From a virus (taxonomy: Duplodnaviria; Heunggongvirae; Uroviricota; Caudoviricetes), in IMG/VR virus record IMGVR_UViG_2724679539_000003, positions 1 through 36,560 of that record: a stretch of DNA of 36,560 nt. The stretch is one strand, 5' to 3'. The position numbers and the translations under genes are program-made. Each line of letters starts with the position of its first letter. Positions within the stretch are counted from its first letter, which is position 1. Below are positions 6,270 through 7,338 of this stretch, piece after piece. The notes beneath the pieces are model-generated. The model was not told the origin of the DNA. It saw only the letters and a program-made list of their open reading frames with translations, and ran no database searches.

Positions 6270-6827
6270 TTGTCACTGCCCGAATGGCAGGCAATATTTG
6301 ACAGCGTAAGCAGACGGCAGCCCTATTTAAAATGCGGGATGCTACTTGTTCTTGTTACTGGACAACGTTTAGGTGATATCTGCAATTTGAAATTCTCTGA
6401 TATCTGGGACGACATGTTGTACATTATTCAGGAAAAAACCGGTTCAAAACTTGCTATTCCGCTTAACCTGAAATGCGATGCTCTGAATATTACCCTTCGT
6501 GAAGTTATATCTCAGTGCAGGGATGCTGTTGTTAGTCAATATCTGGTCCATTACCGTCACACTACCTCTCAAGCAAACAGAGGAGACCAGGTTTCTGCAA
6601 ATACTCTGACAACGGCTTTTAAAAAGGCCAGGGAAAAATGTGGCATAAAGTGGGAGCCAGGAACTGCGCCCACATTTCATGAGCAGCGATCTCTGTCAGA
6701 ACGGTTATATCGGGAACAGGGTCTGGATACGCAAAAGTTACCAGGTCATAAATCCAGAGAAATGACCGACCGATACAATGATGATCGTGGTAAAGACTGG
6801 GTTATCGTAGATATCAAAACAGCATAG
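6270..6827 (+). pseudogene. Lambda-type tyrosine integrase, C-terminal fragment (N-terminus deleted)
   Basis: 185-aa ORF with a TTG pseudo-start aligns with the C-terminal catalytic half of lambda Int (VTGQRLGDIC...HEQRSLSERLY...GHKS...DDRGKDW) and ends 114 nt from the icd fragment. The N-terminal ~170 aa are absent. Confidence 0.8.
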
Positions 6828-6837
6828 AAAATAGCCA

Positions 6838-6875
6838 GTTTTGGGGAAGGGTTTTGGGGAAAGTTTGGGGGAAAA
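6838..6875 (+). repeat. Three tandem direct repeats GTTTTGGGGAA(A/G); candidate arm-type integrase binding sites
   Basis: Repeats of 12-13 bp at 6838-6850, 6851-6862 and 6863-6875, between the int fragment stop and the icd fragment. Position matches the P-prime arm of a lambda-type att site. Confidence 0.45.
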
Positions 6876-6894
6876 TTTTACATCATCATAAAAC

Positions 6895-6917
6895 AACGGG
6901 CGTGTTATACGCCCGTT
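6895..6917 (-). terminator. Hairpin downstream of the icd 3-prime fragment (icd terminator-like, possibly bidirectional)
   Basis: 8-bp stem AACGGGCG/CGCCCGTT with a 7-nt loop; on the minus strand it is followed by GTTTTATGATG. Confidence 0.45.
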
Positions 6918-6940
6918 TCAATATTTAACACATGTAGAGA

Positions 6941-7108
6941 TTACATGTTCTTGATGATCGCATCACCAAATTCTGAACATTTCAGCAACTTAGCGCCTTC
7001 CATCAGTCGTTCGAAATCATAGGTTACGGTCTTCGCATTGATTGCGCCTTCCATACCTTTAACAATCAGGTCAGCTGCTTCAGTCCAACCCATATGGCGC
7101 AGCATTAG
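6941..7108 (-). pseudogene. icdC: icd 3-prime fragment (isocitrate dehydrogenase C-terminal 55 codons); phage attachment-site remnant, icdC-like
   Basis: Minus-strand translation [54 protein letters not shown] plus stop matches the Icd C-terminus. No upstream icd coding sequence; e14-type phages integrate in the icd 3-prime end. Confidence 0.85.
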
Positions 7109-7338
7109 TTAGATGATTAAATCGTAACTATTTGACATAGCAACATAATTTTACTAATTTGCATATAACTCATTAGCTCTTAGCATTTCCATAACTCATT
7201 GATTATCAACATGTGTTTTTGAGTTTTGATAACCATTTTTAGCATAAAAATAGCAGTTAACATTTGCAGAAGTTAAGATCAGAGAAAATTTTTACCCTGT
7301 AAGGTATTACGTCTTAAATGTGACTTTAATAAACAATT

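Follow-up and report, generated by a model that had tools for sequence, protein, structure and literature searches.

The junction at 6231–7338 of the window (the whole stretch of DNA analysed, 36,560 nt, which is the complete draft contig JZWQ02000005.1 of GCA_000968905.2 and whose end at 36560 falls within prophage early genes) is very probably the attR of an e14-like prophage in icd, with the scar of an earlier phage-21-type prophage as its B′ arm. Read from the prophage outwards, it consists of an e14-type P arm, the common core, the icd 3′ fragment (icd′), a terminator, a 21-type P′ arm and the 3′ part of a 21-type int gene (Table 1). As the left block is a 21 int-attP module and the right arm is of e14 type with a different motif, the junction is a hybrid of two att systems. 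It is hybrid by history, not by function: what the e14-like prophage has in the 21-type arm is the plain B′ side of a normal attR.

The 875 bp at 6231–7105 were recovered as a single gap-free block with 95–97% identity to 27 lambdoid phage genomes, including coliphage 21; an arrangement matched in this way by sequenced phage genomes is not a product of chance. The preliminary description had likened it to core plus P′ arm plus int, and phage 21 (OL657228.1) shows the identical element order, its icd part being annotated as an ‘ICDH-like’ pseudogene in antisense. Its further proposal, a hybrid att site between two integrations at icd, was upheld by the 21-type left and e14-type right sides and by relatives in the unoccupied and tandem states. 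The whole locus is >94% identical to characterised 21 and e14 elements. Beyond mcrA, the prophage continues with pin at 8274–8864 (− strand), followed by Mu-like tail genes and then by head, lysis and early genes.

Table 1. Features at and around the icd junction (positions in the window)
Feature	Position	Strand	Basis or remark
Spacer from PhzF-family gene to int breakpoint	6174–6230		Left limit of 21-type remnant
21-type Int 3′ half, codons 183–380 + stop	6231–6827	+	Amino acid identity, Pfam, homology limit
Three tandem 21-type arm-type Int-binding sites (P′ arm), putative	6839–6873	+	TRF, motif scan, phage 21 annotation
icd intrinsic terminator	6895–6917	−	Terminator scan, RNA fold, phage 21 annotation, K-12 icdC conservation
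Displaced last 165 nt of icd	6941–7105	−	Pfam Iso_dh C-terminus, collinearity with ECD227 icd
Common core TGCTGCGCCATATGGG	7089–7104		Single copy in window
e14-type P arm (mcrA–icd′ spacer)	7106–7338		K-12 mcrA–icdC spacer identity
e14-type arm motif GTTTTGATAA in P arm	7223–7232		118–119 nt from icd boundary
mcrA, type IV methyl-directed HNH restriction enzyme, terminal cargo gene	7339–8172	−	Pfam HNH, PADLOC

Arm-type sites and terminator

In lambda, the arm-type sites P1 and P2 lie in the P arm and P′1–P′3 in the P′ arm. Next to the int stop of the window, a tandem array at 6837–6879 was detected with TRF (period 12, 3.5 copies), and copies of TTTTGGGGAA starting at 6839 and 6852 as well as a one-mismatch copy, TTTGGGGGAA, starting at 6864 were located by motif scan. 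The three tandem repeats noticed beforehand are thus present, but the third is imperfect. Their spacing of 13 and 12 nt and their positions are those of the phage 21 attP subsites in OL657228.1, for which the annotation reads ‘integration site attP consists of 3 subsites P1P2P3; consensus YYTTCCCCAAAA’. This consensus is the reverse complement of the window repeats, and the three sites lie just past the int stop. A fourth exact copy of the motif (decamer) is found in the P arm of phage 21, 119 nt beyond the icd′ boundary. With 4 matches versus 0.64 expected, a number reached in 1 of 200 shuffles, the motif is distributed in phage 21 as would be expected of arm-type Int sites. The dodecamers are accordingly listed as putative Int-binding sites, following the GenBank annotation and earlier literature. 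Neither further clusters of the 21-type motif, as a partner P arm or attR would contain, nor the rest of a 21 prophage were found in the window.

A relation of the repeats to the arm sites of e14-like integrases, also considered in the preliminary description, was not borne out: the window repeats are of phage-21 type, and the e14 motif is a different one, TTATCAAAA. In K-12, e14 carries three tandem copies of it in P′, just after the e14-borne icd terminator, and one in the P arm (6 matches versus 0.46 expected over 19 kb). The e14-type motif GTTTTGATAA gave a single match in the window versus 0.04 expected, and its offset from 7105/7106 equals that of the P-arm site of phage 21.

The terminator hairpin reported beside the icd fragment was confirmed by terminator scan and folding. 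It has a 9-bp stem with 6 G–C pairs, a 5-nt loop and a U-rich tail, and the RNA fold has a free energy of −16.9 kcal/mol (z = −2.3). A terminator is annotated at the same place in phage 21 and is conserved downstream of K-12 icdC. Regulatory RNAs in the int–icd spacer were searched for with Rfam, which gave no match within the window. The sRNA svsR of the 21-like element NC-SV was considered as an att-site RNA and discarded, as it sits in cI and not at att.

The e14-type arm and the e14-like prophage

The P arm between mcrA and icd′ was 97% identical to the K-12 mcrA–icdC spacer (7 mismatches in 233 positions, no gaps), and homology to icd breaks off at the same base, between nt 1086 and 1087 of the gene, in the window and in K-12. 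The right boundary of the e14-like prophage therefore belongs at 7105/7106, not at the int fragment. The mcrA gene occupies the same position as in K-12 e14 and was recognised over its full length as mREase_IV by PADLOC (E = 1e-200).

The portion of the prophage within the window amounts to 29.4 kb. Over the last 11.5 kb of the window, a related prophage (L011) is 99.6% identical; beyond this stretch it carries the cI region, xis, an int of 375 aa and a cargo gene with a TIR domain. At the far end of the e14-like prophage, we infer an attL with the 5′ part of icd; L030, L118 and L011, which were used as proxies for this end, show the layout of an icd 5′ part, an e14-type icd′, a P′ arm with three copies of the motif, cargo and intE/xisE. 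L118 (ON470584.1, ‘Escherichia phage vB_EcoM-689R6’) holds a complete icd together with the host genes rluE, nudJ, mnmA and hflD; the record is thus a prophage assembled together with its flanks, not a virion genome, and is unfit as a free attP reference.

Excision of an e14-like prophage depends on its P′ arm in attL and, in attR, on nothing beyond its P arm and the core. The P arm and the core are intact here, from which we infer that the e14-like prophage remains excisable; its excision would recreate the uninterrupted icd allele of the metagenome scaffold L006 described below.

Two further segments of the prophage are of note. The pin invertase and a tail-fibre/tfa cassette occupy 8274–10369, with convergent tfa genes at 9352–9795 (+) and 9767–10369 (−); the pin/tfa segment occurs in both orientations among related genomes (L019 versus L024), and the inverted repeats detected here were only weak. 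Between antiterminator Q and the holin gene, a pair of genes for proteins of 340 aa and 194 aa runs on the opposite strand (31284–32898, +). In PADLOC, the pair hits the candidate defence system PDC-M53 (A: E = 2e-32; B: E = 2e-54); in Pfam, its single match falls short of the curated cut-off. Related prophages carry a DNA methylase and an AAA_15 ATPase in this slot, which therefore looks like a defence or moron hotspot.

Unoccupied, single and tandem states of the locus

Positions 1–7105 of the window are collinear, at 99.3% identity, with CM001142.1 (L003), which is E. fergusonii ECD227 (PMC5517970). In ECD227, an intact icd (416 aa) runs into the same int stub, PhzF-family gene and invasin gene, and the match to the window stops at icd nt 1087, 165 nt from the gene end. 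The metagenome scaffold L006 likewise has an uninterrupted icd, the 3′ end of which is 100% identical to the window fragment; by its sequence it is the exact unoccupied allele. The comparison with an intact icd region that had been recommended at the outset thus gave two cases in which icd continues uninterrupted into the same truncated int. The exact precursor of the occupied locus was L006-like and not ECD227-like, because 15 of the 165 positions of the window fragment are different in the icd of ECD227. These 15 differences (L003, 9069–9233) all fall within nt 12–135 of the segment and include a Thr-to-Val codon, so that the phage-replaceable part of icd reads as a recombination mosaic. The ECD227 3′ end was also considered as a footprint left by the loss of an e14-like prophage through homologous recombination; this found no support, since an icd without a prophage gave the best E. 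coli match (97.1%).

The same junction recurs in a second assembly (L105), which has 3 mismatches to the window over 14.2 kb. In many E. coli, e.g. M16807 and ATCC 25922, the int (380 aa) and xis of a complete 21-like prophage are convergent with an icd that is intact. The full tandem of an e14-like and a 21-like prophage was found in 4 of 5426 E. coli genomes (82.0311, 82.0312, PEC131 and PEC165). In 82.0311, rluE, icd, cargo, intE and xisE are followed by a ~41-kb e14-like myovirus-type prophage, and this by pin, mcrA′, an icd fragment and finally a complete 21-like prophage.

To the left of 6231, no similarity to phage 21 or to E. coli int regions was found. The int breakpoint is identical in L003, L004–L006 and L105; each sequence with this PhzF gene that extends far enough has it, and the truncation thus exists independently of the e14-like prophage. 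The left flank of the stub is made up of the PhzF-family gene, IS debris and the invasin gene. For the PhzF-family gene (5346–6173, −), no E. coli counterpart was found by megablast; its closest DNA matches (~84%; 86% at the amino acid level) are in Buttiauxella, Citrobacter and Kluyvera, and DNA homology spans 5343–6150 only, ending at ~6150–6157. In these genera, for which one genome per species was examined, the gene was never beside icd, an integrase or the invasin gene. It appears to be foreign to Escherichia, and it is bracketed by IS3/IS66 debris at ~4550–5135 on one side and the integrase breakpoint on the other. With unrelated DNA left of 6231, the old prophage was therefore lost by a rearrangement that brought in or abutted foreign DNA. 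Further left, at 940–4212 (+), lies an inverse-autotransporter (invasin/intimin-like) gene of 1090 aa, which is intact here and in L105 and split into ORFs of 329 aa and 708 aa in ECD227; megablast gave no match to it among the 5426 E. coli genomes.

Order of the two integrations

Lambda-type integration proceeds by Int-mediated exchange at the core. In the proposed history, a 21-type phage would first have recombined at the core within icd, so that the last 165 nt of the gene and the terminator would have been swapped for the near-identical copy of the phage, and the P′ arm with three arm-type Int sites and int would have been placed directly downstream, convergent with icd. As a 21-type phage carries an icd 3′ replacement, the gene would have remained functional, with icd′, P′ and int left on the icd side. 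Deletion or rearrangement would then have stripped this prophage down to 875 bp, int being cut at codon 183 and joined to the foreign PhzF-family gene. Finally, an e14-like phage that shares the icd core but not the arm sites would have integrated and brought in a fresh icd 3′ end on the far side; the 3′ end of 21 origin would have come to lie ~40 kb away beside mcrA, together with the terminator, the arm sites and the int stub. The attR of an e14-type phage would thereby consist of P(e14)–core plus whatever was downstream, here the 21-type scar.

The 21-type occupation is likely older than the e14-like one. This order is favoured, and held to be highly probable, because the 21-type element is extremely decayed and its stub is found beside an intact icd. 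The reverse order, in which an e14-like prophage was resident first, a 21-like phage entered the attR core and decayed to the 875-bp stub, and the unoccupied ECD227 and L006 alleles arose by later excision of the e14-like prophage, would result in the identical local structure P(e14)–core–P′(21)–int, as both cores are identical. It would, however, require that the e14-like prophage stayed apparently whole while its neighbour shrank by >97% and acquired foreign DNA as its flank. Repeated reports describe how icd and the downstream fragment are rejoined when e14 excises (PMC13626634), and the mosaic icd 3′ end of ECD227 shows recombination in this segment; against this, the same int breakpoint stands beside an intact icd in at least two independent sequences, and the prophage shares 99.6% identity with prophages in other genomes, which suggests a recent arrival of the e14-like element. 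Taken together, the reverse order is considered unlikely.

Origin of the icd fragment

The fragment of 165 nt comprises 54 codons and a stop and covers Pfam PF00180 (Iso_dh) profile positions 300–348 of 348. It is collinear with icd nt 1087–1251 of ECD227. The icd C-terminal fragment named in the preliminary description is therefore real, but its length of 55 codons has to be corrected, as the triplet 7106–7108 is the last of the e14-type arm and not part of icd. Nor does the fragment belong to an intact second icd copy: upstream of 7105 lies the e14 P arm, and the Pfam match is limited to the positions given. A second copy of the core was likewise not found in the window.

Before the arrival of the e14-like prophage, the fragment would have been the functional 3′ end of icd. 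From 6880 to 7105, the window aligned gap-free to phage 21 and to 21-like prophages. An assignment of the 165 nt to phage 21 or to native icd by their own sequence was tried and abandoned: the DNA differs at 18 positions from phage 21 and at 10 from K-12 icdC, counts that are uninformative, and the 54-aa peptide is ubiquitous, being common also beside native E. coli flanks. A 21-type origin is assigned because the fragment is contiguous with the arm sites and int.

It could be held instead that the fragment is the native icd 3′ end, displaced by the e14-like prophage as icdC was, and that int and the repeats form an unrelated downstream element. The peptide is indeed identical to displaced fragments beside native E. 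coli genes, and the native K-12 icdC flank has the same terminator, the homology of phage 21 to this flank extending ~53 nt past the icd stop and through the terminator. However, int, arm sites, terminator and icd′ are contiguous and identically spaced in free phage genomes, exactly this stretch is what integration of a 21-type phage replaces, and the arm repeats begin ~13 nt after the similarity to the native K-12 flank stops, with nothing intervening. A native 3′ end next to an unrelated element is thus very unlikely, and the fragment is treated here as part of the 21-type scar.

The integrase stub

In phage 21, the int gene measures 1143 bp and encodes 380 aa (OL657228.1 annotation). For the ORF at 6270–6827 (+) of the window, the Phage_integrase catalytic domain was the sole Pfam match (PF00589, E = 5.6e-23). 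Homology to the full-length 380-aa Int starts at 6231, upstream of the TTG at 6270 with which this ORF begins, and comprises residues 183–380; residues 1–182 (48%) are absent. The lambda-type int described earlier is thus truncated as stated, its N-terminal half being missing, but the start of the remnant has to be moved from the TTG to the homology limit. Over residues 183–380, 187 of 198 aa (94%) are identical to phage 21 Int, and identity to e14 IntE is 63%. The R, HxxR, H and Y catalytic motifs are retained, and the frame is open throughout 6231–6827 yet without the native start codon. No arm-binding or core-binding domain was found in the stub with Pfam; L112, a full-length relative, carries PF09003 (Arm-DNA-bind_1). 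The pN/pS of the stub against functional ints was 0.29–0.39, versus 0.13 among functional copies, with a basis of 15–20 substitutions only.

From these features, the int stub is treated as a pseudogene, most probably a dead one. Without a P arm, xis and a complete Int, the 21-type remnant is immobile.

A stub still alive, in which the 198-codon catalytic domain is expressed and modulates, together with the arm sites, the phages that use icd, was weighed against this. The TTG at 6270 is a possible start in a frame that keeps every catalytic-motif residue; the native start codon is absent, however, and the sole promoter-like match overlaps the TTG itself. The domains for arm and core binding are also gone, so the stub would be unable to read the neighbouring arm sites. 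The sequence is 100% identical among several independent contigs, but these identical copies represent one lineage, and the truncated form is kept in 0 of the 5426 E. coli genomes. Similarly, a pN/pS below 1 is two- to threefold above the value for functional copies, on the few substitutions mentioned. Expression of the stub is therefore rated as extremely unlikely, and the same slight probability is given to the view that stub and three arm sites were retained in the E. fergusonii lineage for a function at the icd hotspot. If this were true, the stub might interfere with integration or excision of 21- and e14-type phages or affect the excision of the neighbouring e14-like prophage.

An assembly artefact, i.e. 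a mis-join of the draft contig via the repeated 165-nt icd segment, within which the related short contigs L004 and L005 break, has next to no probability, as the independent assembly L105 has the same junction, complete E. coli genomes contain an analogous one and the join lies exactly at a known att boundary.

Annotation and comparison with known systems

For annotation, the 875-bp stub is to be entered as a phage-21-type attL remnant with an int pseudogene. The locus illustrates how phages with the same core but different arm specificity occupy icd serially, and how a phage-borne icd 3′ replacement makes the ‘bacterial’ att side partly phage-derived.

Coliphage 21 (OL657228.1, M61865.1) has the same order and spacing of the int stop, three dodecamers, the terminator and the antisense icd′ of 165 nt. 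In contrast to phage 21, 875 bp are left here, Int residues 1–182, xis, the P arm and the remaining prophage being gone, and the third arm site has a T-to-G change. In 21-like prophages at icd of E. coli, int is convergent with icd as it is here, whereas the left flank of the remnant is the PhzF-family gene, which was not found in E. coli. One such element, NC-SV of E. coli NC101, occupies the phage 21 site (PMC12803456).

The attR of K-12 e14 (mcrA, P arm, icdC) agrees with the window in the 233-bp spacer (97% identical), in the icd base at which it joins and in the presence of the arm motif; the mcrA protein recurs without a single residue changed in >1000 blocks of the public assembly collection, E. 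coli included. In K-12, however, icdC is followed by native DNA (iraM), and here by phage-21 arm sites and the int stub. Moreover, K-12 e14 is a 15-kb defective element, and the prophage here is a ~40-kb myovirus-type element, of which at least 29 kb are present.

Adjacent e14 and 21 prophages are said to have been studied by Wang et al. in 1997 (reportedly in J Bacteriol 179:5705), where repeated dodecamers were reportedly proposed as arm sites and an icd-homologous stretch of ~209 bp was reportedly described in attP. In tandem e14/21 lysogens, a further closely related system, the two adjacent elements are lambdoid, have related integrases and share the icd core but differ in arm specificity; the 21-type partner is complete in these and a scar here, and the host is E. 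fergusonii-like instead of E. coli. As far as the sources are quoted in PMC13626634, e14 and phage 21 share icd as a classic attachment site (Hill et al. 1989; Brody & Hill 1988), and Wang et al. 1997 is cited on the icd attachment site in PMC12803456 and PMC10111431. The kind of feature is thus already known, as earlier work covers the two att systems, their common site and tandem lysogens. The present locus is a further natural instance of it, in an E. fergusonii-like genome and with the 21-type partner cut down to a scar.
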